Shown: positions 5,144 through 63,153 of the stretch, in pieces | Numbering within the stretch: the stretch's first letter is position 1 | Layout: each line of letters opens with the position of its first letter | Assembly: GCA_037379345.1 (NCBI GenBank) | Contig: CM074511.1 | Coordinates: forward strand, 51,466,862 to 51,530,861 | From: Perna viridis | Taxonomy: Eukaryota | DNA: 64,000 bases | Direction of reading: 5' to 3' | The notes under the pieces: generated by a model | Seen by the model: the letters and a program-made list of their open reading frames with translations, nothing else | The model's database searches: none | Told to the model about the DNA's origin: nothing | Position numbers and translations under genes: made by a program

Positions 5144-5232
5144 CTAGGAAACAGAATCTGAGTCTGAACTGTCCAATTCTTTCCGTCTTTTACTTTTGTA
5201 GGCATGATCATGATCTACATTATGTACTGAAC
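5144..5232 (-). CDS. ptc: patched exon 27 (last coding exon, ...DSSDSDSVS*)
   Basis: Phase 1 acceptor; TAG at 5146-5144, followed by CAG|GTAAGA donor. Confidence 0.85.
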
Positions 5233-8200
5233 CTAAAACAAAGAAAGTTTTTACTCAAACACTTTTTTTTCTGAAAATCTTTAAATCCATTAATTTTCTT
5301 TTAAATATACAAGTACTTTTAGCATAACATGATTATCACAACCTATATTTTTAGTGTTTCAATCCAGAAGTATCTCCCCTTACCTGGAATAGGAGTGTGA
5401 ACTTCAACTTTGACTGTGGCATGAGCTGTTACCCTGGTAACATGTCTTGAAGGAGGAGTAGATGTAACTGATGCTGGTGGTGTACTCTACAAATAAATAT
5501 AAGTAAATTCATCAAGTTCAGTTTTAAGCTAACAATTATACATGTACCTCATAACCTTATTTAAAAAGCATACTCAAGTAAACATTGAAGATAATATCAA
5601 ACGTCAATATATTTCTTCTGAACTACACGAATTTTATCATCTATGATTTTATTTTGAATTCTATATCATCCAATTAACAATGACAGAATAGGGTGAGGAA
5701 TTGGAACCCTTTATATAAAGTTCTGGATTCACTGCTTCTGTATTAAGGTACTTACATGTCTACTATTATTAGCACTTGTCTGAGCTCCACTCATGGGAAC
5801 TGTGGTTGTCTCTACAACTACTTCTGGTTCTACAACTATCTCATGTGAAGAATACTGTGTTGGTTCTTCAGATATTGTTGTCAAGGAAATATCTGAGGGT
5901 ATCCTGGGATACGTTCGTCTGCCAGATCTTCTGGGTCCAACAGACTTCTTTTTGGGTTTTGGGGAAGGTTCAGGTGATGGTGTGGGAAGTCTATCACCAT
6001 CGTCCTTAGGTCGAATCTAGACAAGATAAAGGAATTGAAATGAAACACATTTTAATTGTACATTTTTTGCTCCATTCATAAAAAGGAACATGTGTTCTGT
6101 GTCAAAGGCTTTGTGTGAATTTGTGCTATCACCAAGACTTGATTACATCATACAGAGCAGTGAGGTCTTACATGAATCAGCTAAATTGCCATTCATGATA
6201 CATAACAACAGATTATATTTATGCACTAATTTAGTCCTTTAAAATGACAACTGTTGTTTCTTCTTTATTAATTTTTATATTAGGTCAAGTGTGAATGATA
6301 AAATGATGGTTTACCTCCCCTTTAGGTCCAAGTATTGACAAAAGTACAGGAAGTAAGACCAGTCCATTTAACAGCCCTATCACAACCAGAGCAGCCAGGA
6401 CATTAAAGAAATACCTGTAAGAAAATAAGAAAAAGCATTAAACATAAATCAGAACAGACAGCAAGACACAAAGTAATGGAATCGATGCATGAGGTTAAAT
6501 AACCTTTGTTCTTTGTATTGATGAAAGGTAAGGTCAAAGAATGTTAACATGACCTCATACCCTAATTTAGACCTTCAATGGTTTAATTCATACCCGCTGA
6601 ATACTCTGCAGCACTTCAGCCTGTTTATTTATGGTTTATCAACATTCTTCTTCTCAATTTTGCAATTAAATTGTTCATTGAAAAAATAAAGATGTTAGAA
6701 GAATTTCAAACATGTAAGCAACTGTAAATGCTTTTTACTGACAGAAATTTTAAACAACCCAACTTATTTAATTAAAATTTTCATCAAAAGATGTTCTTCT
6801 TCATTCTGACATTTGCACCCTTCTAACTATGATGAAAATTGTTTCTTTCTTCCTTTACTGAGGTCAACAGCATAAGTAACATGGTTATGTACCTGGGGTT
6901 AATGTAGCGAAAACACATCAAATCTACATACAAATGTTTATTCTGGAGGCTACTCAATGAAAGAAAAAATTATTACCCTAATCTCAATCTAGTGTGTCTA
7001 TATAAATTATTTTTCCCTCTGCAGGCCTCTTCCCATCAGAATTTAGAGGCAACATTTTTAAGACATTAAAAAGTGTGTTAAGAGCCGAGTTCTGACATTG
7101 ATATAGACCATGAAGCTATCTACTATAAACAGACCACACAGTTGTCTACACAGTATAATATTAAATGCCATCCAAATCCTATCATATCATGGCACATTGC
7201 CAAACGCCCTCTATCTGATTGTTGATTAAAATGAATAATTCAACTACAGATTATGAAAATACTTATGATCAGAGGACCACCCTGATCAATGAGCTACTGC
7301 ATCTAACTAACTTCAAATTACACAGAATAAACATCATTTTGCTGCACATTTTCATTAATTGGTTGTCATCTAGTGAAATCAGTTCAATCAATTGGTTTTA
7401 CTATAAAATTCAAGGTGTCTAGACCAAAATCTAAATTTTTCCATTTCATATCTGCTATAAAAGCTTTAGTTTACTTTTTATTTTAAACAAGACATAATAA
7501 AACTGACAAACTTATTTAACTGATGAAGTTTATGTTTGCACTTCATGTTTAAAATATACTTTTGAAAATGAATAGTGTCATTGTCCCCAAAAATTTGCTT
7601 AAAAAACCAGATTTATTCACAAATTTAGTCAATACTTCATGTTCAACAATGTCTGTAAAATCCACTTATCCCACACTTCCTATACAACTTAATATTAAAC
7701 TTGACATGAAAAAAGGCTCTGACTAATTGGCTTTTAATATGTCCATTATAAATTATGTGTTGGACACAATTAATATTGTAATGTCTGGCAGTACCTTGAG
7801 GCATTCCATCACCTGTGGACACTATGTCAAGAACTGACCACCTAGATTTTATTGCTATTTTCATACAGGTGAATATCTCGTAGGCATAAAATATTATGAC
7901 TGTCTTCATTATAATATTTATGGAAAGACCAGGAAAGACAAGCAATACATTTTCTCATAATATATAGATATGGTTTTTCATACATCTTCTGTATAAAATA
8001 AAGACAATACTAAAAGCTTTAACCTAAATTATGCTATTGAGACAATAAAATTAAAAAGAAAATATTACCAGCTATTATTGACAATACCAGATGGTCTTGT
8101 CAAACTTGTTCATGATTATTTAGATATACTAAACGGCCATCCTAAGATGAAATATGACTGCATGTAATAACTGAAATGTTTAACCCTGTTCAAATGTCTA

Positions 8201-11200
8201 CTTTAGTAGTAGACATTTGAACAAAATTATTCCCTATGTAAAACTCAAATCAAAAAGCTATCAAAACTCAAATCAAAAGCTATTGGGACTTATTATCCCC
8301 AACATAAACAATGAACATTATCAAACAAAGAATCTACCAAAAATCCAGCAATACAGTAATTTTCAAAATAGAAATTAGGAACCAATTTTAATCCAAATTT
8401 TGATTTGATTTATGTTGTTTTAAATAGACTTCAATTAGCTTTAATTTTAAAATGTCTTTCATTCAATTTGCATAATCTCCTTTCCATTAAAATTTTATCT
8501 GATGCACCAAGCATGGCTCCTAAAACCAGAAAGCCAGATAATATGTGATTTAATTCCATTAATTAAGTATAACTCTGTAGTAATAGAGAAAACATTAATT
8601 TAATAATGGAGTAGACCTACAGGTAAAGAAGCCCTATGTTCACCAGGTAAAATAGGATAAGGCATCATCAAAACCATAATGTGTAACTTCTGCAGATGTT
8701 GAATAAACAAATTACGTTCCTGATTTGATGAAGAAACTCCCATCTGTTTAGATGTAAAGTAAATTTCTGTTAATTTCATTTCCATTTCAACCTTTCTAAA
8801 AAGACAAAGTTTGACTGTGTGTGGTCTTATAAAAGACACTTAACTCTTATGTTAATATAGTCCAGCTAAAAACATTAAAAATTTATATCCACTTGATTTG
8901 ACTCATAAAGTAAAACAGCAATGGGTTATCAGAAGAATAAGCTAAGTATTTACTGAAGATTGTAAAGTGTTCTTATAAGCTGAATTCACATAAACCCATT
9001 TCAAAGGAAAAATCACATGGCAATTTCCAGCAAAACTACTATAGATAGTGTAGAATTCACCATGTAATACCAACTATTGCTGCTCTAAATACACCATGTT
9101 AAAGAAGGACATTATTTCAAGAGCAATGAAAAAGTACTTTGAAAAAGTACTGCATAGGCACAATAGGAAGAAGCCTTTTGTCCTTTTTCGACCTATCAAA
9201 CAAAGTCACAGGTACCATACATGTCTGCTATTAGAAATACAAAGGCAAAGACTTTTTAATGAGGTCAATAAAGCATGATGAATCAGATAAGTAACCCAAA
9301 AAAAATCTATAAAAAGTTGACACTACATTGCCCATACAGAAAACTATCAATTGCCTCACCTAAACAAGTCATGGACAAATCATTTGTAAAACATGAAAGT
9401 ACATAAAAAAGATAAGACTTTTTCAAACAGTAATTATAAAAGATCACTATCCATTCACTTTATATAATCCAATTCAAAGAGTGACTAGCTGAGTCATGAC
9501 AGAATTTCAGATAAGGTATTTCATATACTGGTGAAAAAAAGTTGGATTACACCAAATTCATTGTGGCCCATTCATAATTCTTTACCAAATCGGGTGTCCA
9601 TATCAAATACTAGCGCCACCAAGCTTTCCATACTGTTGAAAATATTTGGTATTCATTCTTACAGTAACAAAAATTTTAATTTTAATAAAGTGATGAAAAA
9701 AGTATAAAATGAAAAGATGTAACACATGGATTAAGAAATATTTGACAAAATTGTGAGGTTAAGTGGTATAGAGTTTTCATAGCTCTGGAATAAAGCCTTT
9801 ATGGTTGAGAAGTTTTGTAAAGAGTTTTTGGGTGGTCTATAAGTAATTACTACAGTGAGAAAAACCAAGGACATGTTTGATGTTACATGCTCCACTGACT
9901 TCACCACAATCGTGCCTTTGTCCTATGATACTTCCTTCACAATTGATTAGAGCCATAGAGAAAAATTTAATTAATCACATAAGCCTTCAAACATCTTAAT
10001 AAAGCACTATGATTTCCTAATATGAGATATTATAATACAAGGTGCATTTATTTTTTCCATTTTTCGAATAAAGGGTTGAAACCAAATGCAAATAATACAT
10101 CTACCTGAAAAGGTGGGCCTTGATCCAGCAAATTACCTGCGATCACTCAATAATGGAAAGGTAAAACTCTGCCCATCATCAAAATTTTATTACACTTGTA
10201 TTAGGGAGAATAACTTTTTCAATTGAAATTTATTGGATACCAAAATAAAAACGACGTGCAAATATCCAGTAATATGAATATGTAGAAATTAGTAATCCTT
10301 TCATTTTAAATTTTATTAAGTGTTGTAAGACCTCACAGATTCAGAAAGAACTCGTCATCTCAAATCTTAAAGTAAAACTTCAGAAATCTGTTGGATTTGA
10401 CAAGTATTTACTTAAAGCATTACATATTCCTAGCACACTTCTGAAAAGATCACCTTTCCATACTAATCAGATTTAAGAGAAATATAAAACAAATGTTACT
10501 ATTTGAAAAAGACCACCTTTAAAATAACTAGTAAGCTGTTTGAAACACAGCTCAATCCATTATCTCATGTATAAACATTTACATTTTTAGAGCTAGATAA
10601 GATATTTAAAAGGAGGTTAGTTTTTTAATTTGGAAAAAGTGATGTTATTTGAAATTTCGGAAAGTATTTTTTAAAATTTTGTTTCAGGAATAGTCTAACA
10701 AAACTAATATATGTGGAAAAGCAAAGCTGAGGAGAGAATGGCCATACTACAATAGGATATATAAAAGTATAGATTACAAAACTTATATTTCATGGTACCT
10801 TGAAAAATACACAGGCAGATCAACTTACATCATCGTAAAAATTGATATGCAGTATTCAAGGTCAGAAATTAAAACACCAAGGTTACAGTATTTTCATGTA
10901 GGTAAACCTCATTTCATGCTACATTAGACATCTAATGTAAAACTGTGTACCACCCAGAAATACTAAGTTAAATGAGCACCATTAAATATCAGATCTTCCA
11001 GTACTCTGGTCATGTTTGCAACTGACTTGTTTCTCTGAATAAATGAAGAACAAATCTTCAATCTCCATAAAACAGTTTCAGATAATGATATGTTGTATGA
11101 AATTTGGCTTACTTGATAATGAATTCAAATTCTGCTCCAACTAGCATAATAATTCCCATAAATGTTGATATGGCCCCATGCACAACTGGAGCAAGGGTGT

Positions 11201-14200
11201 GCTCTAAAGACATGCCCATACGTTTATCTCTGGATCCTATGGAAGTTAAAAATCCCTGAAATGTAAATAACAAATACTTAGTTGTTGTGATAACAAATCT
11301 TTATTGAGTCATTTTAATGGCAATTGTGATTAAATGGCCTCTTTCATTTACTACTTATCTGTATTAAATTCCCTTTGGAAAAAATGTAGAGTATTTTTTA
11401 TATTACTTACCACAGATATATGCACAGTAAATTCCACACCAATACCAGCTGCTATAATAAGAATTACAGCAGGAACAGCACTTAGTTTAATGTCACATAA
11501 ACCCATAAATCCAAAAAGTTCTATAATCATTATGGTTAAAACCACAACCTGAAAGTAAAAATAAATATACATGTATCAATAATAACATTTTATTTTTCAT
11601 TATTTTAAGCATTTTACAACTAGTAAATGACTTGGATTTATAATATACTCAAAATGTATAAACCATCTATAAAACAAATTGAGACATGAAGAAAAGGCAA
11701 GAAAGCCATAGATATTTGAACTTAGACAGAAAATGAATTTGATGAACGTGTTCTTGAGTATGCTACTTACAATGATACTGGCTAACCATGGATTCATCAA
11801 CATAATAGTCAGGACAATGAAAGTGACCAGAAGTATACACAGGATCGATAAAGCTAGGTAGAGACGAAGCTTTATGTACTGTTCCCAGAATGTAAATGGT
11901 ACACCACTAGGGTAGTTTGGTAAACCACGGTCAGTGTAAGTATCACAGATCCCTCTCATTTCCTGTATAAGGGAAAATACAATTTACTACAAATTATCAT
12001 GTAGAATATAAGCAAATACATGATATTTATTCAACAGATAAATGTTCTGCATGAAGAGGTTATCATAATCAATGCCTGTGAGCATATCTTCGTTCAAAAA
12101 TATCTATAACACATGTAATAATGTACAAGTATTTTATCAACAACACTGTAATTTTTATCTCAGATAGAACACTTTGTAATCTATGTTTTGTTATCACAAG
12201 ACAGTTCTACTTTCCATCTACAAAAGCTTTGTAATACATGTAAAAAGTTATCATTTATTAATCTACCACCCAGAACATGAAATGTACCTTTATAGTTTCC
12301 AAGATAGCTTCTGTTGTAGACAGATTACTCAAGTAGAAAGGAATCTGTGCATAGATCAATGGCTGAGCCTTTGGTACTGCAAAAATAAGTCACAAAACAT
12401 TATATCATAAGACTGTGGTAGGATGTCAAAGAGTACATATATGTTTTCTATGTGCTTTAGGATAATGACCTGATCCTAAGAAGAGGTGAAGACGACACAA
12501 CCAAACCATATCAGTAATACATGTCAAAAGTCACAAAAAACTTTCGTCTACATATAAACTGAAGGATTCTTCAAGTACTGATTCTTAAGCACCAGTTTTA
12601 GGTTGAACATAAGTATGTGTAATATCATTCAAGTTGACAATTAACTTACTTTTATGGTCATACATATCATAAGCATCATGAATATAAGCTGTAGGAGCAG
12701 GGTGGAAGTCTGCCATTGATGCTGCATACTTCATGGCATCAATAGACACCCAAGCAGTCAAATAGTTGTAGAAAGCTTCAGTGTTAATTATACCATCATC
12801 ATTCACAAGTTTGTTATGCAAAACCTGAAACCAGACAGAAAGTTTATTATAATTCTATTTTTATTAATCCTATTAATCATGACGTTCAACACCTTGCAAG
12901 AATGAAGAAATTGTATCAATGCAGAATATCAGAATTCTAATTAAGTGACTGTCCTTTTCTGAACTTATATCACTTTCACCATCCAGGAATTTTCTTAACT
13001 CCCATAAAGTAAATCTTACTAAATACTGTGAGCTACCTCTGTTTCAAATGGAGTTCAATGTTAAATCCAAATCCTTAAGTTAAACTGATGTCCATATGAT
13101 GCCCAACCTTCTTACAAATTTAAAAAAAAAATCCCTTATGCAGATTAGGAGGAGTTGCACAAGTTTACAAGAATAAAGCATAAATGAGTGGACAGATATG
13201 CAGGCAGACAAGGTTATTTCTACATACACCCCAAACATTGTTTAAAATAACAAACCTTAGTTTTGTCAATAGGATTATCTAGATCACCAGTCTGAAGTGT
13301 GAGTTTATATCCCAGTATAGCTTTATCAGAAGCATTGTAATACCATCCATCAGTATGGATCCTATTCTCTCCTACCTCCTTCTCAAACACTTGTTGGACA
13401 TCTACAAAGAATATAAGATAGATTACCATTAACATCTGGATCGTATTGACTAAATACATTTTTGAAAATAGGTTTCACAGCAAAATGACATATATTCTGT
13501 ATATTATTGTTGGATAAATATGAGAAATTTGTGACTCAATATATGTAAATTGTATGATAATTGGCTACAAACCTTTCAGCCAGTCTCTGAACATGTCCAA
13601 CCAAAAGTCTGGCATAGAATTATCTTGTTTCTTTATGATATTATCCACAGGATGGAAAGCTCTGTGATAATCTCTTAGTAACTGTTGGTTATTTGGGTAG
13701 TCAAAACCATCCTGGAAACAAAACAGAGAAATTGCAACCCTATTATATCAAATAAAAGAAACACAAATGAAATGACACTGTATCATTTACTGCAGTTCTT
13801 GCTTAGTTAAAAAAAAGTTCAATAATAATTTTTTTTTATCAATTTGATAACTAAGAACAGTTAAGTTAAATTTTAACCTAATATTAATATTTGTTACCCA
13901 AGTAAAGTTAACCTACCTTAGTAACCATATACACATTGTAGAAACCAAAGTATTTAGATTGTGCTTGAAGGAAGTTGTATTCATTGGAGTCTTTAGGTAC
14001 AACATCAGTCAAATCTAATCCATCCTTAACTTGAGCTGTTCCATATATTCCAATGAACAACAAAACAAGAAATCCTATTACAGTAAAAACCTATAAAATA
14101 CAATTAAAAAAATTAGAATGTTTAACCAAATGTTTGAGTTTGTTGTATTATGAATAATTAATTAGCTCTTTAAATCTATCAAGCAACAGAGTCTCAACTT

Positions 14201-17200
14201 TTTAATTCATTATTACATTCAAAATTGATAAATAGAAACTAACCATAAACCATATAATACAGTTGAGTAAGTTTTTACAAAGTCACTTTTTTGAAACAGA
14301 CCATACTCTAAAAGGTCTAAAACTGTAATTATCATTTTTTGTACTGATCCACTACCATGAGATGGAGCATGATTTTAAAAAGCTGAATTCATTTTGTAAT
14401 GTTATTCAAACAAAACACATGCCTGTTCTGTTCCAGTACATCCCACTGGTGTAAGTTTACAACACCACATGTTGGTTATGTGTATTACTTTCAGTAAAAT
14501 AGATCTTCTTGCCAAGAAACAGCAAGTTGAAGAAAAAAAAACCTATATACAAGACCTTCCCTCTGCACTAAGAGGAATTCTGTTACCTACATTGAGGGCA
14601 AACCTTTCTCACTTAACTCTGCATTTTTTAACTAACAAAAACTTAAGTAGGTATCTTTTACTAATATCATCTCATTCTAGGTCTAAAAGCTTTTAATCAG
14701 AGTGAGTAACTACTTACCTTCACCCATTTCTTTTGTAATAATGGAATATAATGTTCTTTTGCCAGAGATGTAAAGGTTGCTGTAAGACACTTCTTCTGAG
14801 CCATGGCAAACGTCTGTCTACATGATAAACCATCTTCTGGGGTCAGACACTGCCTTGATGATGTACTGGTAGCATCTATTGAATAGAATAATTTTTATAT
14901 TAGTTGAACTGAATAGTAAAATACAGGTAATGATTTTTAATTAGATTAACACAGTTATAGTTTACTAGTTTAGTGTAAGAAACACTTTACTGCTAATTAT
15001 TGCCTCCAGTTAATTTGAATAGAATCCATCATTTCTGTTAAAAGTTATTCCTATAATCAACTTTATGCAAATTTTACATCTGTCCAAGTAAGACTTGAGG
15101 TCATTATTGTTAATAGTGTTCATGCTTTACTGTACTTTTTTATATGTATGACCCCATTTAGATATGTCACTATGGTTCATGGCCTAGATATTACATTAGA
15201 GAGACATTAAAAGTACAAAAGTATATTTTGTATCATTACAGAACTCAACAATATAATTATGGGTTCTACACTATGCCACTGTACAACAAAGAAATGGATA
15301 ATTCCTGTCAGAGTATTTCATTACAAAGGCATTTATTTTATTTGTTATTGTAGAAACAAATCATTTATTACTGCTAATGCACTTCCCAATGTGGTTGGTC
15401 ATTAAAAATGTAACATGCAAAATTGCACTTATGTGGGAGTCAATTTGTCTACCAATTAAGTGAAGTCTCCATGATGCTTTCAACTTTACTTTAATGATGT
15501 TCTTTAGTTTTTGGAATTACATAAGAATAAAAATTGTGATTTACGTTTGTTTTCTTCTACTTTTTGGCAATATTAAGTTTCTTGAAACGAACATACATTT
15601 AAAACATTACAAATGGAAATAAAAAAGAAATAATACAACACAATCTTATAATTTGACAATACAATTTACCTACCAGTAGGCATTTGACCTCTAGGAACAA
15701 ACACACCCTCATGAGGAGCTAGGCTGGTAACAACACCATCAGGTGCTGTCTGGGCTACTGTATTGTGGAGAACTGATGAATTATAGCTTGGAGGGGGGCT
15801 GGCACTATACTGTGGAGGACTGTAACTTGGTGGAGGGCTCTGTTCTCTCAACTGATAATCATATCTTGGTTGTAGTTCCATCACCAAGTTTTTAGTATCA
15901 GCAAAACTGTAAGATTAATGTCACTATGAGTAAAACATCTTAAACATTTTTTTTAAAGTCATAGAAAATTATCATCTGTACAAATAATCATACCACAATT
16001 TTCATTGAAAAAAATCCTGGAATTAATCTTCAAGATAAATACATTAATGTATTTACCTTTGAAAGCAACAGAAGATATCAATTCTCTTGTCATCTTTCCT
16101 GTGTAGATCTATACTGCAGATAGCTGGGTAGACTAGAACTATAGAGGCCAGGTTGAACAGAATCAGTATTGCTGCCTGTAATAAACATAAAATTTAATGT
16201 TGTGAAATTAAGGACAATCAAATATTAAGAATTGTATGGTATAGTTTCAGCTTATTTTTAATAAAATGATAACATTATTTCATTTAAAATGATGGAATAG
16301 CAAAAGGATTTATTTTTTTATAATAAAAGCTCTTTCAAAACCAACAGTTGCAGCTATACCTTTATATTGTTGTAGTTTCACTGCCTGGTTTCGTAAAAAA
16401 AATTCTCAAATTGAGATTTTCCTCAAATCCTTGAGCTTTCCGCCCATATTCAATTTCCAGCCCGTTTGAGTTGAGGAAGGATTTGAGGAAATTCTCAATT
16501 TGAGATGTTTTATGAAACCGGACCCAGAAATAATATCTATCATATACATATGTGAGAGAAATAGCCTTAGAACAAACCTGTAGAGAAAATGCCCTTAGAG
16601 CAGGAATAGGAATGATTGCTGCAGTAAAGAAAGCAAGCATATTGTTGAAGGATGTTATCAGAATGGTAACACCTGTTCTCTTTAAACATTCACCAGTTTG
16701 TTCCTACAAAGAAAAACACATTTCAAATGAAACCAATGTATGAATAAGTCACTGAGATAAATAATATCACCAGTAAGATGACACTGTTCAAGATGATGTT
16801 TCCACAAGAAACTTAAGGATTGTCTCTGGATTTTTTGGCTTAAAAATGCAATGCAATATATACCAGTCATGAAGAAGAAATGAAGTTTTGTGATAAGTCT
16901 GAACACCATTTTAACTTACATTTAATGGAATATTCTTCTTCTCAGCATTTTCAGAGTAGGTATGAGCAATAAGAAACATATCATCTACTCCCAAGCCCAA
17001 AGCTAGAAAGGGTATGATCTGTGTAGTGGCAGCATTAAATGGTATCCCCAATACACAACATACACCAAGACCAGCAGCAACAGATAGGGCTACCAACAGA
17101 ACTCCAGCTATACCAATACCACTCTGAGATTGTACAGCATTGTTCCATTTTAACAGAGAGACACAGGCATAAACAATCTGAAGATAGATAAAATATTTGA

Positions 17201-20200: not shown

Positions 20201-23200
20201 AAGAGATTTAGGTTATAGGCATATCATAGTTTCTTAGACAAACTTAATCCTATTAAAATAGTAAATTCAGAAAAGTAGACCACAAAAAAAGCTCAATCTT
20301 TCAAAATTTGACATTTTTAATTTCTAAAACTTGAAAGCATGTAAAATTTCATTCATAAATTTAAAAAGTCAACAAGGCAATGACTTGCAATTTACTTATG
20401 TATAAAATCATAAATATATTTCATAAATTGATATTAGTCTCTTTACGAATGACACTTAAATAAGAAATCTTTTATAAAAAATGTATTTCAAATTGTGTTT
20501 TTCATAAAACTGGCGCTTTTATCCAACAATTTGTTTCGTCTTTGTTCACCTGCCTATTGTGTTGTAATTTAGATCAGTCAAATTTTTTGGGTGTAAGTTT
20601 CGTGATCTGAGTTAGTGATAAAACATAGCTGTAGGTTTGACCATCTTAATTACATCGAGTGAAATTTGAAACCTGAGTCAATAACATCTAAACATTCCTA
20701 CTGTATAGAATTGTTTAAACTTTTAAAAGAACATGGTGGGTGTTGAATGTACATAAAAAGTCACAATGATCCCTTATAAGCCTAGGGTTGGATCAATGTT
20801 CAAAGAACCCAGCAATAAAAAACATGAAATTAAAGCCCCATTGTATATAGTTCCTGTGAGTTTGGTCTATTAAGTGTAGATTCATACAAAGGAAAGGTCT
20901 TAATTACAGACAAGATTATTAAACACAATATCATATCAACTGTCTTTTGAGACATTTTTAACTATACTCTGCCCTGTATTCAACATGTTTTAGATAAAGA
21001 TACACAAATGCTCTACCTGTCTCCATTCCCAATAAGTCAAGGGGTGGTTAAGGTCATTGCATTTATTGCTTTTAGACTAAAAAGTTACCTATTGACAATG
21101 ATACTAGGCAAGATGTAATGATGGGAAGTTACACAATACTGATCCATCCATGTCTGTTTATGCAAATATTTTCCTCACGACTCCATCAATCTATACTTAG
21201 GGTGGTATGACTTTCATATGTCACAGTATTACATTCATTCATTCATTACTAGATTTGTGTATAGTCATTTCAGGTTCACTGGAGAAAGACAAGGTACATT
21301 CTTTATCTTATTCACATTACCCATTCCAACCTACCTATGAAATGTCATTTGAATGATACTGAACATATATCTGCTCCCTCTAAATGCAAAGTTATAAGGA
21401 TTGAAATTGGAAGGAAATCTACTTATCATTTTCCAGTTAAAATAAATGAAAATGGGCATAACATGAGGCATAGATTAGATGCAAGTAATAAAAAAAGAAT
21501 GTACTTACTGCTCCTGTATGTTTGTTTGGAGCTGTATCTGGACATTGTGTTACAGTAGGGTCCAGACATGGTCTCTGCTGGTAACCTGTTGTTATCCCAG
21601 CCTGAAATTGTACATAAAATTGACAAATCGCACTCTACCGATTCAACAGGAAAAAATCAAGTCATACATATTAGCTAGCATCAATTTGGTTCAAGAATAT
21701 TTATACAAGATTTAAAACATTCCATCATCTATATAATCATAGTACCAATACAAAATAAGGATTTAAGTTTTCACCAGAAAACATGTAAGTACATGTAAAA
21801 TACAACTAGTTAACAATTATTTAGTGCCTCTGTAAGTATGATAACATTGTCTAATAATGTTACCATCAAAGTGTATATGTGTGATGATATACAGGCAATT
21901 AATGAAATTTCCACAGTGCAAAGCTATGAAATGTTGACATACAGGTGACCAAAAAATTTATGTAAGCAATTCAATGTGTGTGGTTGATGGATGATTTGTC
22001 AACACATTATGTAACTAAGTGACTTTAAATGTATATAATTTGTCACCCTACAGCATGAAAGACTATCAATAAAAATGCATGAATTCTTAATATTGCCTAC
22101 ACAAAATCTTATTTGAAAAAATAGCCAAATTTTAATAGCCCTATCTTAAGATTATAACAGACCTATTGTTATGGGGATTAATGTCCAACGATGCTCATGG
22201 TTCAATTAAAGCAACGAAGTAACCATCTTGAATGGCCAGTGATTTATGCAGTATCCATTAAAGTATCTTTTAAGTTTTATAATAGACAGGTAAGAGCAAC
22301 AGCCAAACAACTTTTAACAGTATCAGAATCAAACACATGAACCCCTAAAACCTATCTAAAGGTATAAATTGGTGAACAGACTTGACAGACAGTAATGGAA
22401 TAATGAGCCACAAAACCTACCTCCTTCATCATTTCTTTCATGACATCAACTTTGGGAATTCGGTCATGATGGTGGTTTTCTATGTACTCTATCAGGCTTT
22501 CTGGATTCAAACTGTCCCATCTCAGAGGTGGTAAAGGCCTAAAAATAAATGCCAACTCATCATTTTCTATGTAGCACAATAATTCACCAGAAAATCATTG
22601 TCAGACCATAAGCTAAATTGAGTTGGCAAGTTCTAAGTCTTAGAATCAAAATGCAATAAAACAGGCTCTACCTGATGGCAGTACAAATTATGTAAGTGCA
22701 TAAAAGCAATAATAACAACAATTTTTGAGGCAAACCAAATCAGAATATTTCTCGTTAAGTGTTTTTATTCTCAATTTGAAAAATCGCTAATAATAATAAG
22801 TCATTTTAATGCTCATGATATGGAAGTTTTTAAATAGATTCTGAGTGATATATAGCAATACACAATATTATTTAAACACCAATAGAATCCATTCAAATCA
22901 GTAAATAGAATGTTAGTATGATAGTCAACAATATAAATAAAATGGTTTGCAGCTCAATATGACTGCATTGGATAAAACCTAAACACTAAGAGTATAAACA
23001 ACTTTACTTAAAATTGATACAAAACTGAATTTTCATTGGGATTGAATTTTTGACACAGCATGAAACGAAGATAATAAAGGTCCACAAGTCTGAACCCTAA
23101 ATGTTCGGTATGTAACACATTTTCTATTTGTGAGAAAGGTTGTTTTCAGGAAACCAAAAGCCCTAATCAAAATGAAAACTTTTATATGTATATGTACAGT

Positions 23201-26200
23201 GTTCATTTGGGTGGTAAATGTGTTTTTACTCTATCTATGAAATAGGAATTTAGCATGCACACCTATTATTTTCTATTATCAAAGTAAAATGATTGAATAT
23301 GATGCTGTGTGATCTTGTATTGTAAGAGCAAGTCTAGTTTTTACAGCCAGATCCATAAAATTCAGTTTACTTTGTAATATATAAAGAATGAAGTAAATGA
23401 CATCTCAAATATTATTTCTTTTAAATCCCTTATGGATATTTTAGTGATCAGATAACATATTGCTTTATTTATTGGGCTTCAGAAATAAAATGTGATTTAA
23501 AAACAGATAATATGCCCTCCTAAAGGTTTAGATTTATGGAAAAATCAAATAAAAATAATAAATATGTATTTCAAAAATAAAAAAAAATTGAGAAGAGAAA
23601 ATTTTCTCAACTGTACTGACTGAATTGTGTCTTCTTTTTACAGCACAAGTAAAATATGGTAAAATCTTTTTTTCCTTTTAACAAATTTAAACATTCTTTG
23701 CATATGTCAGAACTTGAAGCATCATTTTCTTTCTGAATGCCATTCAAACAAGATAATTCACTTCAACTGAAAAGAGTTTTCAACAAAATATGTCAAGGAT
23801 GTAAATCATACAGAATTCTATAACCAACAAACAAAAAAAAGAAGAAATAATCAACCAAAAAAGTACTTTTGAACCAATGTCAACAATCAAGACTTTGATA
23901 AAGAGGTATTTTCTACTGGGATAAACATCAAAGGATAATGTGTCATAATCAGGAATTTATTGGCATAAAACAATAAATCACCTTTCAGTTGAGAAACAAC
24001 AACAAATGCTTTAAGTCTGACCAAAATGAAATCTGCAGGTGTAGGACCACCCAACTTGTAGTACTTGTTATCACTGAATGCCTACAGCAAAATACATGAT
24101 ATTTCCCTCACTGCTTCCTTGGTTAAAACCATGTTTCATTCATTAAGTACAGTTCAATCTATTTTGCCAGAACTTTGAAGAATCTATGCCTAGATAATCA
24201 CAGTACTGTAATACAACCTTCGATTTACTACCAAGAAAATATAAACATCAACTCATGATCTGCAAACTCAGTTATCATAATTGCTTCCTGTAGGAAGATC
24301 TTTAAAGGTATTCAGAACGAGATCATTTTTTGTAACCTTTACTTTAAATGAAATCAAGGTATTAAAAATTAGCATTTAATGTTTATTTACAGGGAAAACT
24401 AAAATGACATGATCATGGACTTTCTATAACTGAAATTTTCTTTTCCAAAATACATCAAGATATGAAGTGCTATATACCAGTACTGAAAATCTGGAAAATA
24501 TTTGGAACGGTCATATTAACCTGTTTCTTTTTTTTTTTTTTTTTTTTATTCATTCAAACTGTTTTCTGTGTTTTTTGAAGAACTTATTCACAACACTTTA
24601 ATTTTGATTTATAGGTATGACCAAAAATAAAATTGCTTTGAAAATTTCAAGGTTTATAAGTATCTGAACATAAACCATATATATAGAAAAGCTTACATAA
24701 AAATCATAACTTTGATGATGCCTTAATGTAAATATTTTGGGAAACAAACCTGAAATTGAGAAAAAAAACTAAAATTGCTATAGTGCATTTCCTACAATAT
24801 AATGGAAAACTACTTTACTGAAACATATACACTAAATATACTGCAAGTTTAATCATCTACTTGGAAAATTGCCCTACCAAACCTAAAATCATTTCAATTA
24901 AAAATTCCTCAATTTATTTCTCTACCAACAAATTAAAAGTAAGAAGTGTATATTGTTGATCAGGTTTTCATATTGGCAGTCTCTCCCCTCTGACCACCCA
25001 GACTGATCACTTACTTGCAACAAAATGTTGGACAGAGAACCAGTAATGTCAATTACAATCTTTCAACTGTTATCGAAAAATATACCTCAGAGAATTGGCA
25101 TAATTAACCTAGCCAGATAGTTCTCTTAATGTTACATAAGGTGAACAAGCATTCTGCATTTGTATCTCAGTTTTAATCAGAGAATGTTTTATGGAATAAT
25201 ACTCTCTGTGTACTTAGGATCTGTTTTGAAGTGCAATTATTGCCATTTTGATATTAATTTAGTATAATAAAAGTATGTACCGGGAAGGCATACTGACTAC
25301 AGCTAGCCTCCCACAATGAAGTGTTTGGATTCCTAAGTTAAGGTTAAAAAATCTCTGCAACAAGCACCAGATACCCCAAAAATTAACAAATCTCAATCTC
25401 AGTTTACAACTGACCATTCTAAAAAGCACAGCACATACTAATCTCAGAATGTCTTTCATAGCTGAAATATTGCTGCTCGGACGTTAAACCCAAACAAACA
25501 AAAAAATATCCCCCTTTTTTCAAACAAAAAACTGTTTCTGTTTCTTGAAAAAATATGGTCTGCTTATGTTGATATACTTACAGTGTGGTCCAAACAGAAT
25601 GATGTGGGCCTAGAACTTTTGCACCTTCCCAGAAACAGTCCAATGGTGTTATGATCACACATGGTGCAAGCTTTTGTATAATCTGCAAAAAAATGTGTTG
25701 TTCATAGTATAAATTGTTCTTCAAAGTAACTAAATGAAGCAGTAAAATCTTTAATCTTATGAAATCAAGAAACAAAAAAAAAATTTGCCCCAAACTGTAT
25801 GAAGTTTAGCTTAACATGATGGGAGTTGAATATTAGATTTCACTTAATCATGGAATCCCTGATATACAATTAGCATTTGGTGTAATAAGTGTAAAATAAG
25901 GCAGTGGGTGTTACTGACAGCATACTTCAAGAAGATACATTCTAATGATTCTGATAACAACTGATTACATACAGCAAAACCTTCATAATCCAAACATTTC
26001 ACAGAAAATAAATCCGTATGAAAATAGAGTTAAAAAAGGGAAGTGGCAAAAAACATGCTCTGATGGGGAGGCAACTGAATGAATTCTTTCGGACTTTAAT
26101 CAAAATAAGGTTGTTTATATCACTTTTATTTCAAACCTCTTCAGTCTATCTAAACAGAATATTAAAAGACAGAGAGTTACAATGAAAATTCACATTTTTT

Positions 26201-29200
26201 TTCAGGAGCAACAATAATTTGAATCCATAGACATTCAGGGGAGATAATTTATTGTTTCTACTCACATTATCTATGATGTTATCTTCAAAGACTGGAAATT
26301 CAGCAACATAGCAAATGTCATGAAACTTCCATGTCCTATAAAAGAAAATTAAAAATTGTAAGATTTACCAATATGGACAATGACCAGTATCAATTTTTTT
26401 GATGTAAAATTGAATAAAATGTGTATTTTAAGTTACTGTTAACAGATTTTTCATAAGATTATCCATGACATACAAGGCAAAAACTTCAAGGACAAGTAAA
26501 ATATGATTAAAAGTGAGTAATAAATATAATAGTGTAATGGTTTGTTCATGCAATCTATAATTTGTTCATATAATAGACTTTTTATAGTAATAACTTCATC
26601 CGAACAGTACTTACGTCTCAAACATATCTACTTCAATCTCTGTCACTTGCAACAATGTTTCCAAATGTAAAAGTAAAGATTTTTGCGTTAATATATTGGT
26701 TCCTTGTTTTGGAGTTTGAATAATAAGCTCACTAGTAGTCCCACTACCAACACCGACTGTTGTTTTTGTATAAGCTAATTCATCTTCTAATCGACCACCC
26801 TCTGCAATGGTAAAACATGACACTATGTAAAATAGTTGACATTACAACACTGGTCAGTTAAAACTTTTTAAAAATCTTAGCTATTAAATAATAGAAGAAC
26901 ACATTTGTTAATCTGATAGGACAAGAACATTTCACAATCTTCTCCTTTCTTGAGAAAACTACTTTAAAACCTAAAGATGAACAATGACAACAAATCTCAA
27001 ATATTATAAAAATATACAACCTTACATTAATTTCTAAAAAAAAAACCCAAATAAACAAAAAACAAAAACAAAACAAAAATAACAAAAAAACCAACTATGT
27101 GTTTGTATGACATTTATTGGAAAAAACCTTTAAAATAGTCAAAAATTCAATAAATTAAGCAGATCATATTTCAGTCTTTTCCTTTGTTACTACTACAAGG
27201 GAGCTTATCATGGTGAGAAAGATCTTCTCAGAAATGGAAAGTACATTTCAGGTATGAATTTTTTTTCCTTGTGAGAAGCAAGGAAAATTAGTAAAAATAT
27301 CTAAGTTTTGATAGGTAAATAGAAATGTTGAGATATTTACATTATACAATGTTATACACACAGCATATAACTAATATTTAGTTAGGCAAGAACACAATAG
27401 AGGAAATATTATGACAATGACCTCTGTTAGTTTTGGATGACTGCCCCTGTATACCATTGGCTGACATATCTGTCTGTGTGTGGCCCACCAGTTTGATGTA
27501 GACATTGTCACATGTTACCATATGTACCATGTACATATTAAGTGCATTTAACACAAATATCTTTTATAGCAAGAATGTTTACTTTACAGTACTTTCACAA
27601 AACTTATGTTTGTTTTGTCAGGTGGGATTCTGTAGCAAAGTTTATTTTTTCATGTGAATTTCGAGAAAAGAGATTTTGAAGTAAACCTTAATTTATTGGC
27701 ACACTTGCTGTTATGTTAAGTTTCCTATCTATCATTCCTATGGCTAAATGGGTTCACAATTTTCTGTTTAACCTAAAAACTGCCCTCTTTCAACTTTCTA
27801 ACAAACAATAAAGTTTATGTTTTTTTGGAGAAGTGATGTATGAAAACTTTCAAAAATTTTAATTAAATATTTTAAGGGTTAAGTTTAAATAGACATTGTC
27901 ATGCAAGAAAGCTTCAACCATACAGAAAATATACCATTTCTCAAGGAAAATTTCATTCATTTGCACAACTTAAATTCTCTGTTTAAAGTAAGGCTAATTG
28001 ATGGATCAAGACACATGCAAAATACACTTTATTCAACTGAACATTTTAAATTTCTTTTTAGGAAAGTTGACAGAGTGTATTGAGGACTGGCAGAATGTTT
28101 GGCAGTAATTGGGAATTTGGCATGCAACATATTGAACCAAGTCACTGAACCCATACGATCTCACATCATGTTTTTCCGTCAAACTTCACTCCCCCAATGA
28201 ATGTCAACTGTTGGGTGGTACTGTCTCTAGGTGGTTTATTTACCATAGATTTTTGAAAATATAAAATGCATTTTTAATAATGAAAAACTTAGTTATAATG
28301 AAACAGTCCTTCAATAAGCCAGGTTTTATTCATGGACAGTTTGTGGTCTATCAATAAGATAATTACTAGTTTGAGAAATAAAGTTGAAAAAAAAATCAAG
28401 AAAACAATGTTTAATCAATTTCCTTTATATATACAGAAAATATTACAACAGATGCTGCTACTGTCATGCATTTGCAGCAATTTAAGAAATTTTAACAGTA
28501 CAGGCAATTTTCTATGAAAAATAAAAGTTTATTTCAAAAAACTTTGTCTGAAACCATATCTACTGAGGTAATACATAAGTAAGCAAAAGATCATGGCCTG
28601 TGGCCAAAACCTGAAAAGCAAAAAAAATTCTTTTCACATACCACATTTCTGACAGATTGAAATGAAGTGCACAATTTGAAGGTATTTGATCTATCTGCTA
28701 ATCTCACTGAACATGTCTTGTAGAATGATCTGATTAAAGCTAAAAAAACACCCTGAGAATGTAAGTTCAATGTAATTGTCAAATTGCTATCTCTGAAAGG
28801 TACAAGCCAAGTTTATTCCTTCTATGGTGGTCTTAAGCAAAAAACAATGGCTGAAAGAATGTGCTCATTGGAAAAGTAAAAATGGGAACACAAAAAGTTG
28901 TCAGAATCATTTCACAAAATAATGTGTAATTCAGTTTCGACAACAACAAAGCAATGGCCATTTACCTATGGATCACTGACCATCATAGCCCATTCCTTTG
29001 GAAAATTTCACATAATTTAAGTGAAATGTGTGGCATAGTACATTAATAGTGCCATTGAAAATTTCACAGGGAATGGTTTAAAATATGTACATATCTTATC
29101 CTCAAATTTGGTATGAGCAAGATCCCTGTTACAAGCAAAGATACAATAATGTACTGAACAATTTCTAAATCTGTCAGCATAATAAGCCCTAACTAATCTC

Positions 29201-32200
29201 TAGTTTCATTCTTATGGATGAAATGGATGGAAATTATACAAGTTAGTGACACATGTCAAGAAGAATTATTTGGGGATCACAATACAGGGACAGTCCATCA
29301 TAAACAACCTTGTGGCCTCTTGTCTCTGGAGGAAAACTATGTTGTAGTTTCTAGTTTATGAGAACATTGCTAAGGAAAGACACTAATATCAATCCCATTT
29401 ATGTTTGATATATCAATTAGTATATAAAAAATATAAGTTATCTCCCCTTAGTGTGAATTTTTTTGCTTTAAGATAATTTCTAACCCATAGTTTAGACTTG
29501 TTTCATTTTAAAGAGACAGGGAATATAACACAATATGAGACAGGCTATGGCTATTGAAACAAAAAATAAATCTACAGATTATTAACTTTTAGACTTCTAG
29601 TCAATAAGCAAAACTGGTCTAAAGTTGATTACTATACTATACTGTAACTTATAAATATCATCAACTTTTATAGTATAAGAAGAAAATTGTGTTAACACAT
29701 AAAATTTACTTGAATATTAGATTAGACATTAACCAAAATTCTTCTCTGATGTACATATAAATTATAAAATATGATGATGAGTGCAGCTACAGCTGATGAG
29801 AATCTATTATCTCCAATTTTCTGACATTAGTAATAATAAAAAAAGGTCATACACAAAAGTTATCTAGCAGTGTGTAATGAGAAGTCCAGAGTTTACCCCC
29901 TAATGATAATAACAAACTCCAGTACATTTTCTCTCCTGAACTTGGTGTATATCAGCATTAATGGAAAGAATGCATTTACCATAAGTTAAAACCCTTTCTG
30001 TCATTTCTCTACAGAATAATTGGTAGAAATTGTTTTTTGGCATTAAACTGCATTTATGTATGATGCATTCTTTCAAAACTTTAGTTTACTAGAACTGCAA
30101 AAATTGACATATTTAAAAAATTAACAGATAAAAACATAAGAATTTTGAATATCAACATGTGCCAATGGCATTTTGCTATAAGAACTTCTCAACATTTTCA
30201 CATATTATGTTGGTTTATTGGTTAACTTTAACTTGTAATTAGCACTGGAAGAGGATGGATACAAGAAGTAGGATATATAATATGAACAACCTCCATAAAC
30301 CAACTTTGGGTACACAATGTATATTGTAACACTGTACATAAGTCTACTCTAAATATTTTTAAAACAAACTGTTAAAGAAAAATAGCAACTATTGAAACGC
30401 AAAAGTGCAATTTATAACATTGAATGAAAACAGAGAAAAAAAAACTTGATTTGAAGTGTGAACAAAGAAATATCTCAAACACCTGATGTAGAGTAACACA
30501 TACACACATTTGATAAAGGTCTGTTATTTGTTATCGCAAATTAACATAAAGCAAGTTTGTGTTTATGTAATGTTGAACCTTTATAATGTGTAATTACTAA
30601 AACCTCACTCTCCATGAATCCTTTAAGCCTATTCAACTCCATGCAAACAATATCTCCCTTTTCATTTAAAGTTAGGGTTTTATTCTAAGGCAAGAAAATT
30701 GGTATTCACTATCAAACTTGGTCACACTATAAATGACCCAGGTAGAATAGAAAATATTTGATTCATTCATCCATAAAGGCCCCCATCATCTGAAATTCAA
30801 GTACATCTATTTACAAAGATCTGAGAAAGAATCCAGGTCACAAAAACAAAGTATTTATAACATACTTACATCACTTCTGTGCTGTTGTTTATCAGAAATT
30901 TGTGAATGAACAGTGGAAAGATTACAAAAAGTGATTACTAAGCACTTCTAATCAAATCGCAATGGTCAATTATACATTTCTACATTTTTTTTTCTATTCT
31001 GCTTAAGACTTAATTTGAATTCTTTAGATTTGTTTAATGAATTCCATAATTATATACATCCAGAAAAAAATAAGTCGTATACACGTTATTTTAAAACATA
31101 ATTGATTTACTGAAAAAAGTATAAAAATCTGCAATTGTGATAGCAATTATCTGGCTGTACATCTCTATTCTGAACTGCTTAAAAATTTAAAACTTGCCAG
31201 GAAATTCCTGACTTGTTTTTACTTTTAGAACTATGTGGGATAATGAAGTATGTATATAAAAGTATAGAAAAATATAACTGAAATATAGAATTTACAATTT
31301 AATAAATATCCTTAAGTATATCATGTACATGTACTTAGCATCAACAGATATTCAAATAGTTATGAAATAGCTCAAGTTTTGCCTAATTGCAAACTTTTAC
31401 ACAACATATATTTTCATTTTAATATGATAAGAACTCAAACCAGAATCAATATCACTCTGCACATGCCAGAACCATCAAACATTTTATCAAAAAGATGGAA
31501 GGAGCTGACTTAGTGTGTACAATAATAAATAATGCACTGAAAATGTTATTATACTGAATACTACTGTATTATTACTATACAAGTTTGAGTTTTATGATTT
31601 TATTTTAACTAGAAAAGATGTGTTCATCATAAAACAGTAGTAAAATATTACTATCAGGACAAAATCTTACTCCACATGCTGTTAGCTGTTTTATGTTCCA
31701 ACCAGATATAGAATTAAATTGCTATGACAGTCCTTACATGTAAAAAGTTCTTTTTGAAAAAAAATTCTGTCCATAAAAAATAGCATTATTAATGCTAGCT
31801 ATTAAAAGATCTTTTTAGTAATTAAGGAATAATGAGCTGAAGTCAATTTCCATATCAACTGAAATGGAAATAAAAATCTTTTACAGAAGTTCAAGTACAT
31901 GTATGTTTTTGAATGTTCCCAATGAAAACTTCTGAATTATTATCATAATCAATCTTTAAAGTTTTTCCAAGGACCCTCTTGTTGGTGCCTATCCAGACCT
32001 CCCAAGCAAACGTTAATCTCGTTACCTTTAATATCTGATCAAGATTTTCGATAATGCACTATTGTTGTTTTTGGTAATTAATATCTTGCCTTTTTGTTAG
32101 CAATCATGTTGAAAAAGGAGTGCCAATCTGATATTACACAAGTGTGTTAGTTATTTGCTTAGAGAATATGCTTACAATGGGTCGATGCCGTCACTGCCTT

Positions 32201-33214
32201 TGTTTATCGATTTTATCTGGACCAATCTAACGACTTTAATGAGCGGGAATAATCAAAATTATGAACAGTGTGCCGTGATTGTTCAGAAACAACCGTCAAC
32301 TATCTTTGATGATTTCAGCGTTCCTAATATAACAGACGGGGACCACACACAGTCAAGATCAGATTTCTAGGTCAGGAAACAAGATGGCGGCTTACTTGCT
32401 TTACCTTATCAAAGGAATGTTTCGTGAATGAAGGTGCGATTTAATTAAATCTACAGTAGAAAAAAGTGATCTTAGTTATAAAGTTATCTTACCTTCTACC
32501 CACAGATCTTCAACATCAGTTTCAAATTTGACCAACTTGAATCCGATGCAACACAAAGACAACAACAGTAATCCCAAAAACAAAACTTTCCCACAATGTA
32601 ATTGAATAAAACAACCAATACTGAACATATATTTTTGGAGATGCCAGCGTATCCATAACGCACATTTGTTACCATCTGCTTTACCCTGAAAAGACAAAAA
32701 AAGTTTATTTTTAAACTAAGCGATGGAGGTGAAAGGTCATGTTTACTTTTAAGTCAAGTTCAGATTCTGAAAAAGTACCACACACAAATGGTGGAGACTG
32801 TTGGAACAGAAAAGAGTCAAAGGCAAGCCATATTGAATATTCTAGAAGTTAGTGGTACATGTACGTAAGGTATGTCGTATAAACATCATACAGTTGAACT
32901 TCATTACTTTGCGTTATGACAGATGATCTTGCCTGGGGGTAAACGCACACACCGCTTACAATATAAATTCTATATACAAATGTATACTATTTTTACTGAT
33001 CGAATACTTTTCTTCTAATGTTAAAATTCAGAAGCAAAATCAATTACTTCAATGAGAACTCCCAGAAAGCGAAGAATGAAATGAGGTCATCGAGATGCTT
33101 CATTACACATACCTTTTTCACTTGTTTATAAGCAGTTCTAGCATCCACAAAACTAGTCCGAGTCAACAAATCCTCATCAACAAGTGAATTTGCGCCCCTT
33201 CTTCGGATATTCAT
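5144..33214 (-). CDS. ptc: Protein patched (Hedgehog receptor), complete spliced gene, 27 coding exons, 3912 nt, 1303 aa
   Basis: Exons join in frame with GT-AG boundaries. Hallmarks: [13 protein letters not shown], sterol-sensing domain [12 protein letters not shown] (GxxxDD), TM10 [24 protein letters not shown]-tail RLPTPSPEP and [15 protein letters not shown]. Several exon lengths (193, 70, 122, 148, 126, 119, 138, 143, 100) match vertebrate PTCH1 exons as I recall them. Confidence 0.97.
5384..5486 (-). CDS. ptc: patched exon 26 ([15 protein letters not shown])
   Basis: 103 nt, conserved C-tail motif. Confidence 0.9.
5756..6016 (-). CDS. ptc: patched exon 25 (C-tail; RLPTPSPEP)
   Basis: 261 nt, open frame on the minus strand. 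Confidence 0.93.
6315..6414 (-). CDS. ptc: patched exon 24 (TM12; [15 protein letters not shown])
   Basis: 100 nt. Confidence 0.96.
8187..8223. repeat. Perfect hairpin, 16-bp arms and 5-nt loop
   Basis: TGTTCAAATGTCTACT-TTAGT-AGTAGACATTTGAACA. Confidence 0.9.
9829..9837 (-). promoter_or_regulatory. Gli/Ci consensus site (GACCACCCA)
   Basis: TGGGTGGTC exact match in ptc intron 23. Confidence 0.65.
11113..11255 (-). CDS. ptc: patched exon 23 ([10 protein letters not shown]; TM11)
   Basis: 143 nt. Confidence 0.96.
11411..11548 (-). CDS. ptc: patched exon 22 (TM9-10; GIGVEFTVH)
   Basis: 138 nt. Confidence 0.96.
11771..11962 (-). CDS. ptc: patched exon 21 ([17 protein letters not shown]; TM8)
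   Basis: 192 nt. Confidence 0.96.
12288..12376 (-). CDS. ptc: patched exon 20 ([15 protein letters not shown])
   Basis: 89 nt. Confidence 0.94.
12650..12824 (-). CDS. ptc: patched exon 19 ([17 protein letters not shown])
   Basis: 175 nt. Confidence 0.95.
13256..13401 (-). CDS. ptc: patched exon 18 ([16 protein letters not shown])
   Basis: 146 nt. Confidence 0.95.
13573..13711 (-). CDS. ptc: patched exon 17 (FDYPNNQ...[10 protein letters not shown])
   Basis: 139 nt. Confidence 0.95.
13917..14090 (-). CDS. ptc: patched exon 16 (TM7; [12 protein letters not shown])
   Basis: 174 nt. Confidence 0.95.
14718..14875 (-). CDS. ptc: patched exon 15 (STSSRQCL...[15 protein letters not shown])
   Basis: 158 nt. 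Confidence 0.9.
15674..15906 (-). CDS. ptc: patched exon 14 (cytoplasmic loop with PPxY motifs)
   Basis: 233 nt; donor GTAGGT chosen because it preserves the frame into exon 15. Confidence 0.88.
16057..16175 (-). CDS. ptc: patched exon 13 (AAILILFN...RIDIFCCF)
   Basis: 119 nt. Confidence 0.95.
16381..16527. mobile_element. Palindromic MITE-like element, ~50-bp imperfect terminal inverted repeats
   Basis: Left arm CTGCCTGGTTTCGTAAAA...TCTCAAATTGAGATTTTCCTCAAATCCTT mirrors the right arm ending TTTTATGAAACCGGACCCAG. Confidence 0.75.
16578..16703 (-). CDS. ptc: patched exon 12 (TGECLKRTG...[11 protein letters not shown])
   Basis: 126 nt. Confidence 0.96.
16920..17177 (-). CDS. ptc: patched exon 11 (SSD; [20 protein letters not shown])
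   Basis: 258 nt, GxxxDD motif. Confidence 0.96.
17790..17924 (-). CDS. ptc: patched exon 10 ([14 protein letters not shown]...GYILM)
   Basis: 135 nt, start of the SSD. Confidence 0.95.
18442..18520 (-). pseudogene. Decayed partial duplicate of ptc exon 9 (pseudoexon)
   Basis: Translates [22 protein letters not shown] versus [23 protein letters not shown]; in-frame TGA plus a 1-nt insertion; still flanked by CAG and GTGAAC. Confidence 0.88.
18588..18735 (-). CDS. ptc: patched exon 9 ([11 protein letters not shown]...[10 protein letters not shown])
   Basis: 148 nt. Confidence 0.95.
18881..19097. mobile_element. 217-bp MITE with 14-bp TIRs and 5-bp TSD
   Basis: CAGGCGCGTAGCTG...CAGCTACGCACCTG flanked by TGAAT on both sides; internal G20 tract. 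Confidence 0.88.
19940..20061 (-). CDS. ptc: patched exon 8 ([15 protein letters not shown]...[11 protein letters not shown])
   Basis: 122 nt. Confidence 0.95.
21509..21601 (-). CDS. ptc: patched exon 7 ([15 protein letters not shown]...CPDTAPNK)
   Basis: 93 nt, conserved cysteines. Confidence 0.94.
22421..22538 (-). CDS. ptc: patched exon 6 (PLRWDSLNP...MMKE)
   Basis: 118 nt, phase consistent. Confidence 0.92.
24045..24053 (+). promoter_or_regulatory. Gli/Ci consensus site (GACCACCCA)
   Basis: Exact match in ptc intron 5. Confidence 0.65.
24992..25000 (+). promoter_or_regulatory. Gli/Ci consensus site (GACCACCCA)
   Basis: Exact match in ptc intron 5. Confidence 0.65.
25582..25682 (-). 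CDS. ptc: patched exon 5 ([16 protein letters not shown])
   Basis: 101 nt, signature motif. Confidence 0.95.
26266..26335 (-). CDS. ptc: patched exon 4 (TWKFHDICY...IIDN)
   Basis: 70 nt; not in the ORF track, read manually. Confidence 0.92.
26615..26801 (-). CDS. ptc: patched exon 3 (GGRLEDEL...ELIIQTP...MFET)
   Basis: 187 nt, phase 1 to 2. Confidence 0.95.
32493..32685 (-). CDS. ptc: patched exon 2 (GKADGNK...TM1...EDLWVE)
   Basis: 193 nt, AG/GT boundaries, TM1. Confidence 0.95.
33113..33214 (-). CDS. ptc: patched exon 1 (MNIRRRG...[17 protein letters not shown])
   Basis: ATG at 33214, donor GTATGT; resembles the Ptc N-terminal RxS(Y/F)xDA motif. Confidence 0.85.
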
Positions 33215-33469: not shown

Positions 33470-33660
33470 ATTGTGTTAAGCCCCGCCTCTTCTGATGACT
33501 GACAAGATGATATCGTAGTAGTCTGTTATCGGATTGGCTAGATTTAAATAGGATTGCTCAAGTAACAGCAGCTTACATTAGTTGCTAAGCAACAGTTAAC
33601 CGCAGTACGCGGACCTCACAAGACGAAAGAACCACCACGGCGTTAAATAAACGGCATATT
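33470..33660 (-). promoter_or_regulatory. Putative ptc proximal promoter
   Basis: GC box (CCCCGCCTC 33481-33489), CCAAT (ATTGG 33533-33537), RFX X-box GTTGCTAAGCAAC 33581-33593 and locally raised CpG, ~270-450 bp upstream of the ATG. Confidence 0.55.

Positions 33661-46891: not shown

Positions 46892-63153
<16,262 letters not shown>

Follow-up and report, generated by a model that had tools for sequence, protein, structure and literature searches.

The patched locus and the mussel Gli gene

The window analysed here, a 64,000-nucleotide stretch of the Perna viridis genome, carries on its minus strand a gene that, judged by its sequence, is the orthologue of patched (ptc). The coding span (5144..33214) opens with an ATG at 33214 and ends near 5144; when the two closest proteins were mapped on it, 27 coding exons were found to tile a protein of ~1300 aa. 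A few exon edges are approximate by a few bases, the closest Gli site lying 16 bases off an edge, and the introns of this exon map total 24,112 bases. The exon at 16.9-17.2 kb had Patched-1 as its best structure hits and was 96% identical to the Ptc of Mytilus californianus. Upstream of ptc, also on the minus strand, a VCP/CDC48 gene lies at about 48000-63200.

At 18452-18518 lies a degenerate tandem duplicate of part of ptc exon 9, namely its 3' half, with 87% identity; it is flanked by splice-like signals, contains, as we read it, a stop codon in frame and a single additional base, and is probably a dead pseudo-exon. Dispersed high-copy repeats were located at 18875-19119, 25458-25506 and 34969-35075, none of them overlapping a site listed below. 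The CpG observed/expected ratio was 0.64-1.04 across 32001-44000, covering the promoter and upstream DNA, whereas it was 0.06-0.26 in the ptc gene body. The candidate enhancers lie mostly within this apparently methylated gene body, and CpG is absent from all 14 high-scoring Gli-type sites.

A Gli gene was found in the mussel genome at G000:C7 near 5.018 Mb. Its fingers 3-4 matched 2GLI, a structure of human GLI, with E 1e-42; finger 5 differed by 2 residues from the human stretch compared, so that by sequence fingers 3-5 appear near-identical to those of human GLI1, which makes the same DNA specificity likely. Loci of the same finger family were also present: three that we read from their sequences as Zic-like, within 62 kb at G000:C2:54.39-54.46 Mb (L001-L003), and one that we read as Glis-like.

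Gli-type sites in the ptc introns

A published score table was used to define the high-scoring class as the consensus GACCACCCA plus 21 single changes keeping C4 and C6 (PMC4692483, S1 Table, regenerated as 211 motifs), so the variants were not picked post hoc. The ptc introns contained 14 sites of this class, identical to the 14 proposed in a first-pass annotation of this DNA, all of whose coordinates and 9-mers were correct and all of which fell in introns by the exon map (intron 2, n = 3; intron 5, n = 3; intron 8, n = 1; intron 20, n = 1; intron 23, n = 6). The window scan also agreed with it in giving three exact consensus sites and no others.

In intron 2, a GACCACACA site (32341..32349, plus strand) begins a 16-mer that is common to site 8818, a GACCTCCCA site (31996..32004, plus) stands at the edge of a conserved island described below, and a TACCACCCA site (28212..28220, minus) lies in single-copy DNA with weaker sites at 28228 and 28340. 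The motif scan placed two exact GACCACCCA sites in intron 5 (24045..24053 and 24992..25000, both plus), together with a TACCACCCA site in single-copy DNA (23208..23216, minus). Further TACCACCCA sites were detected in intron 8 (19184..19192, plus), 65 bases outside the dispersed repeat at 18875-19119, and in intron 20, which is 307 bases long (12264..12272, plus). Intron 23 (6414..11111), a single-copy intron of 4.7 kb, carries six high-scoring sites against 0.27 expected, at 7132, 7275, 7836, 8818, 9829 (exact) and 10948, as well as weaker ones at 10141, 10329 and 10511. Most of the strong sites are single and 0.3-4 kb apart, only 7132-7836 having three inside 1 kb. In intron 1 two low-scoring plus-strand sites, TACCACACA at 32776 and GAACTCCCA at 33056 (32776..33064), were listed, and these are indistinguishable from background.

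An identical 16-mer surrounds a Gli site at both 8811-8826 and 32341-32356, in opposite orientation and 23.5 kb apart, with no third copy genome-wide. It is not claimed as a fixed composite element, since two of its last three bases are changed in a diverged contig (see below).

Sites with no more than one mismatch to GACCACCCA numbered 18 in the window against 5.66 expected, a count reached in none of 100 shuffles. Four of these were absent from the earlier list: 26793 and 13694 are exonic, 15392 breaks the essential C6, and 55418 is in VCP.

The genome background consisted of 32 windows of 30 kb (960 kb) from 15 contigs, holding 0-7 high-scoring sites each. Compared with it, the 14 sites of the ptc introns represent about a tenfold excess (1.41 expected, p 4e-10), and the 11 one-mismatch sites are significant by themselves (p 3e-7); the strong enrichment proposed at first pass was thus borne out, no background window exceeding 7 sites. 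Counts over the whole genome (723 Mb; 1859 exact, 3664 TACCACCCA and 61,764 sites with at most one mismatch) led to the same result for the 24.1 kb of intron, where 3 exact sites were found for 0.062 expected (p 4e-5), 5 TACCACCCA for 0.12 (p 2e-7) and 15 sites with at most one mismatch for 2.06 (p 6e-9). The expectation of ~0.03 exact hits given originally was about twofold too low, which leaves its conclusion unaffected. In a look-elsewhere test over all 9-mers against a 600-kb background, GACCACCCA with at most one mismatch ranked first and its one-base shift second; among 200 permuted motifs, only a cyclic shift of the Gli motif itself gave more than 5 intronic sites.

The excess was restricted in kind. 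The low-score motif class was not enriched in the ptc introns (18 vs 12.8 expected, p 0.10), nor were Zic-type, RUNX and KLF motifs. A G directly after the 9-mer was found at 7/14 ptc sites vs 8/56 background sites (p 0.008; for G or C pooled, p 0.08 only), and G at this position matches the Gli ChIP motif. Five of the 14 sites are TACCACCCA, while the equally scored variants starting with A or C were found 0 times (p 0.015). Regions chosen as internal positive controls were near background, with 7 sites/90 kb at the Gli locus and 7/70 kb at a GSDH-domain region that is not established as Hhip, and six sterol-sensing-domain regions had 0-5 high-scoring sites per 30 kb.

Promoter-proximal DNA, conservation and other animals

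The upstream DNA at 33215-48000 (14.8 kb) had no high-scoring site vs 14 in the introns (p 0.001), and in this species the strong ptc sites are inside the gene and not in 5' intergenic DNA. Low-scoring sites numbered 17 in the same interval, about twice the background rate, and no cluster of optimal sites was found at the ptc promoter. A candidate promoter-proximal Gli element was nevertheless recognised at 33608..33628 (plus strand), with the core GACCTCACA at 33612-33620 (score 0.823), 398-406 bases above the ptc ATG and with two mismatches to the consensus (5T, 7A). The element matches a GLI1 binding probe at 18/21 positions (PMC7873571). Probe-like 21-mers of this quality occur 3 times genome-wide and 4 times for the reversed control, so the count is at chance level; the chance of one falling at the ptc promoter is about 4e-6 for a 1-kb target, an optimistic figure, since the likeness was noticed first and tested afterwards. 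A PTCH1 reporter study gives consensus-level activity for any base at position 5, or for A at position 7, when changed singly (PMC2830928), and 33612 combines both changes. A nematode TRA-1 motif in an extended form could account for the promoter flank, a reading that was set aside: literature searches turned up no description of such a motif, and none of the sites in the ptc introns has a flank of the promoter type. In view of its sequence, 33612-33620 is likely a Gli site, and the initial statement that good sites are missing immediately before exon 1 is probably wrong, this core having been overlooked.

Conservation was assessed with a 797-base contig of depth 4.1 from run X9. It differs from the window at 22/183 bases of exon 2, far above the ~0.2% of same-species contigs, and it therefore probably comes from another mussel species. 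Around 32341, ~300 bases of intron 2 were 84% identical vs 88% for exon 2; this block (32102..32403; 48 substitutions and 9 gaps in 302 bases) is a candidate enhancer. Site 32341-32349 showed no difference, the nearest changes being at 32338, 32354 and 32355, an observation that is weak on its own because 28% of the 9-mers in the aligned stretch are likewise untouched. More telling is a 32-base island (31995-32026) that starts one base ahead of site 31996, with 31/32 bases identical (the single difference may fall inside or outside the site) and unalignable DNA on either side. The two sites covered, of 14 in all, thus both lie in conserved islands, as seen in one low-depth contig (4.1).

The same contig has invariant runs of 33 bases (32232-32264) and 24 bases (32314-32337) that lack a Gli site and are candidate co-factor sites; the former contains what we take to be homeodomain-like and E2F-like words. 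Further X9 pieces align at 30530-30774 in intron 2 (31 differences/245 bases) and at about 33640-33960 upstream of the promoter, both candidates for conserved non-coding elements; neither holds a high-scoring Gli site. Within the species, long contigs of run X2 showed 27 differences in ~12,200 bases, none of those listed being inside a site, which is uninformative because only about 0.1 hit in sites was expected. Run X8 was left out, as it yielded only short identical pieces that are probably carry-over.

A metagenome scan returned 80 loci, 17 of which passed a filter for intron-bearing DNA, and 10 non-redundant fragments were retested vs 200 permuted motifs. The fragments dropped were L039 (the same DNA as L038), L063 (GC-rich, weak match) and five termite-like contigs that overlap (L069, L071, L075, L080 and L081), with 0-1 sites each. 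A copepod-like fragment (L026; best hits copepod Ptc, 59-62%) held 5 sites in one 3-kb intron, a count reached by 0/200 controls. The fragment L038, from an unplaced invertebrate whose best named patched hits are nemertean, brachiopod, annelid and echinoderm at about 60%, held 8 non-coding sites (0/200 controls reached 8), of which two fall within long open frames and may belong to coding DNA that went unrecognised. A coral-like fragment (L084) had 3 intronic sites, a weak excess that 7/200 controls reached. No excess was found in the remaining 7/10 fragments (L040, L087, L021, L024, L076, L077 and L082), most of which are insect-like and apparently lack the ptc 5' end, where the fly enhancers have been mapped.

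Regulatory interpretation

Fly ptc and mouse Ptch1 are controlled by batteries of Gli enhancers, some remote, some close to the promoter and some intronic, according to Lorberbaum et al. 2016 (PMC4887206), who also describe a Polycomb-marked promoter and flanking CTCF boundaries. The mussel locus resembles them in having, at the same gene, sites of the same motif and of varied affinity across the locus, introns included, and by the sequence tests that gave a clear outcome it matches their distributed architecture; distributed Gli enhancers are the published architecture and not a new mode (PMC4887206). The layout differs. The fly enhancers described there occupy 5' intergenic DNA and the first intron, with three optimal promoter sites, and mouse Ptch1 has a single cited intronic module besides numerous upstream ones (PMC4887206), whereas in the mussel all 14 high-scoring non-coding sites of the gene span are intronic, six of them in a 3' intron. 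Unlike the fly promoter, that of the mussel has one non-consensus candidate site, and no high-scoring site occurs in the 14.8 kb upstream; confinement of the strong sites to introns and frequent TACCACCCA set the mussel apart from both animals.

An intronic cluster of Gli sites recognised by motif density at ptc has a counterpart in the Drosophila enhancer ptc+5.3 (Gurdziel et al. 2015, PMC4692483). The latter comprises 7 sites in ~3 kb of intron 1 and is mutation-validated, while the mussel sites are candidates spread over five introns. Two fly results count against reading enhancers from sites: site clustering alone predicted 23% of enhancers, and 80% at known or suspected targets (PMC4692483), and mutation of the one optimal site of an intronic ptc enhancer had little effect (PMC4887206). 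For the human gene, Winklmayr et al. 2010 (PMC2830928) give the promoter site BS1 as GACCTCCCA, the same 9-mer as mussel 31996; the PTCH1 changes that keep activity (position 5; 7A) describe mussel 31996, 7132, 8818 and 32341 and, combined, 33612. The human PTCH1 promoter is there stated to rely on the perfect consensus BS2 (PMC2830928), and the mussel promoter is without one. In oyster larvae, ptc RNA dropped with cyclopamine dose (PMC6290081), an effect that was not specific, as Hh, Smo and Gli RNA were also lowered.

A literature search that was thin on subscription journals listed neither work on Gli sites in the ptc gene of any mollusc nor a Gli element mapped in molluscs; its matches for functional TACCACCCA sites were mostly unrelated, and the accessible text of an annelid Hedgehog paper (PMC9695228) holds nothing on Gli DNA sites.

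It is very improbable that the excess arose from chance, from repeats or from CpG decay in a methylated gene body. The ptc introns are indeed CpG-poor (observed/expected 0.2) and CpA-rich (1.3), one 16-mer is present twice in them, and motif clusters borne by repeats do occur elsewhere in the genome: in the two richest background pieces, all or part of the count came from repeats that share identical flanks, and a family at G000:C1:41.098-41.118 Mb (L112, L191, L192), which could seed Gli sites elsewhere, carries an exact Gli consensus triple with identical flanks. Against this, Markov models of order 1-4 trained on the ptc introns predicted 1.1-3.0 sites and a low-CpG background 1.75, versus 14 observed, and VCP, the CpG-poor neighbour, holds 1 site in 16 kb. 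None of the ptc Gli sites is overlapped by a tandem repeat, single-copy DNA makes up intron 23 and surrounds 28212 and 23208, and contig depth is at the single-copy level in the bins with 24045, 24992, 31996 and 32341. The site flanks are unique and the tested introns single copy at the sites, so that the repeat origin against which the first-pass annotation had cautioned was not found at the sites covered, and explanations of this type are largely refuted.

Other explanations accept that the sites are real. They could bind Gli without making up discrete activating enhancers, acting mainly through Gli in its repressor form, or else as a diffuse array by which Gli is concentrated locally for the promoter site. 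The mostly single strong sites 0.3-4 kb apart and the candidate promoter site would suit such an arrangement, as would the repression by optimal Gli sites in fly embryos noted in PMC4887206. We consider it unlikely, since the ~300 bases near 32341 are conserved nearly as well as exon 2 and the invariant 33- and 24-base runs without a Gli site fit a multi-factor module. Hedgehog-independent control of ptc, with selected sites read mainly by the Gli relatives Zic and Glis, is quite unlikely. These relatives have loci in the mussel genome and DNA preferences that overlap Gli sites, and the five TACCACCCA sites are not consensus; on the other hand, the 9-mer that ranks first is none other than the Gli consensus, no enrichment was seen for Zic-type, RUNX or KLF motifs, and among targets of Gli, ptc is the textbook case.

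A distributed and mostly intronic input of Gli to mussel ptc is well supported as a prediction, by the enrichment, the non-repeat origin, the limited conservation and the parallels in other animals; the part of the original proposal that set it against promoter-proximal control is not supported, given the 33612 candidate. With a probability of about 0.8, the intronic sites are bound by mussel Gli and form several enhancers that, with the promoter site, raise ptc on Hedgehog. By analogy with fly and mouse, mussel Gli would bind the intronic consensus sites, with activator Gli present in Hedgehog-receiving cells; the sites would form several predicted enhancers, above all in introns 2, 5 and 23, and these, together with the predicted site at the promoter, would increase transcription of ptc while Hedgehog signalling is on. 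As in those animals, separate modules may sum their effects across tissues, and additional Patched would damp Smoothened, and hence the signal, as negative feedback.

The distributed architecture of patched has been proposed as ancient from two animals only, fly and mouse, to which a mollusc adds the third great bilaterian branch. The mechanism is not new, and the mussel case is a useful resource and confirmation, with the intron-2 block, intron 23 and the promoter site as short, concrete candidates for Hedgehog-response elements. A broader reading, offered tentatively and more doubtful than not, is that Gli-loaded patched introns are an ancient signature legible in sequence in molluscs, crustaceans and possibly corals, and that in mussels nearly all of the strong input has shifted into the gene, with a preference for TACCACCCA(G), the promoter using a weak core strengthened by extended flanks. 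If this were true, direct Gli-to-patched feedback would predate the cnidarian-bilaterian split.

Beyond the ptc stop, three more high-scoring sites were also observed 5-14 kb downstream (L111:1615, 5640 and 9633), where about 0.6 are expected per 10 kb; these are possible 3' elements.
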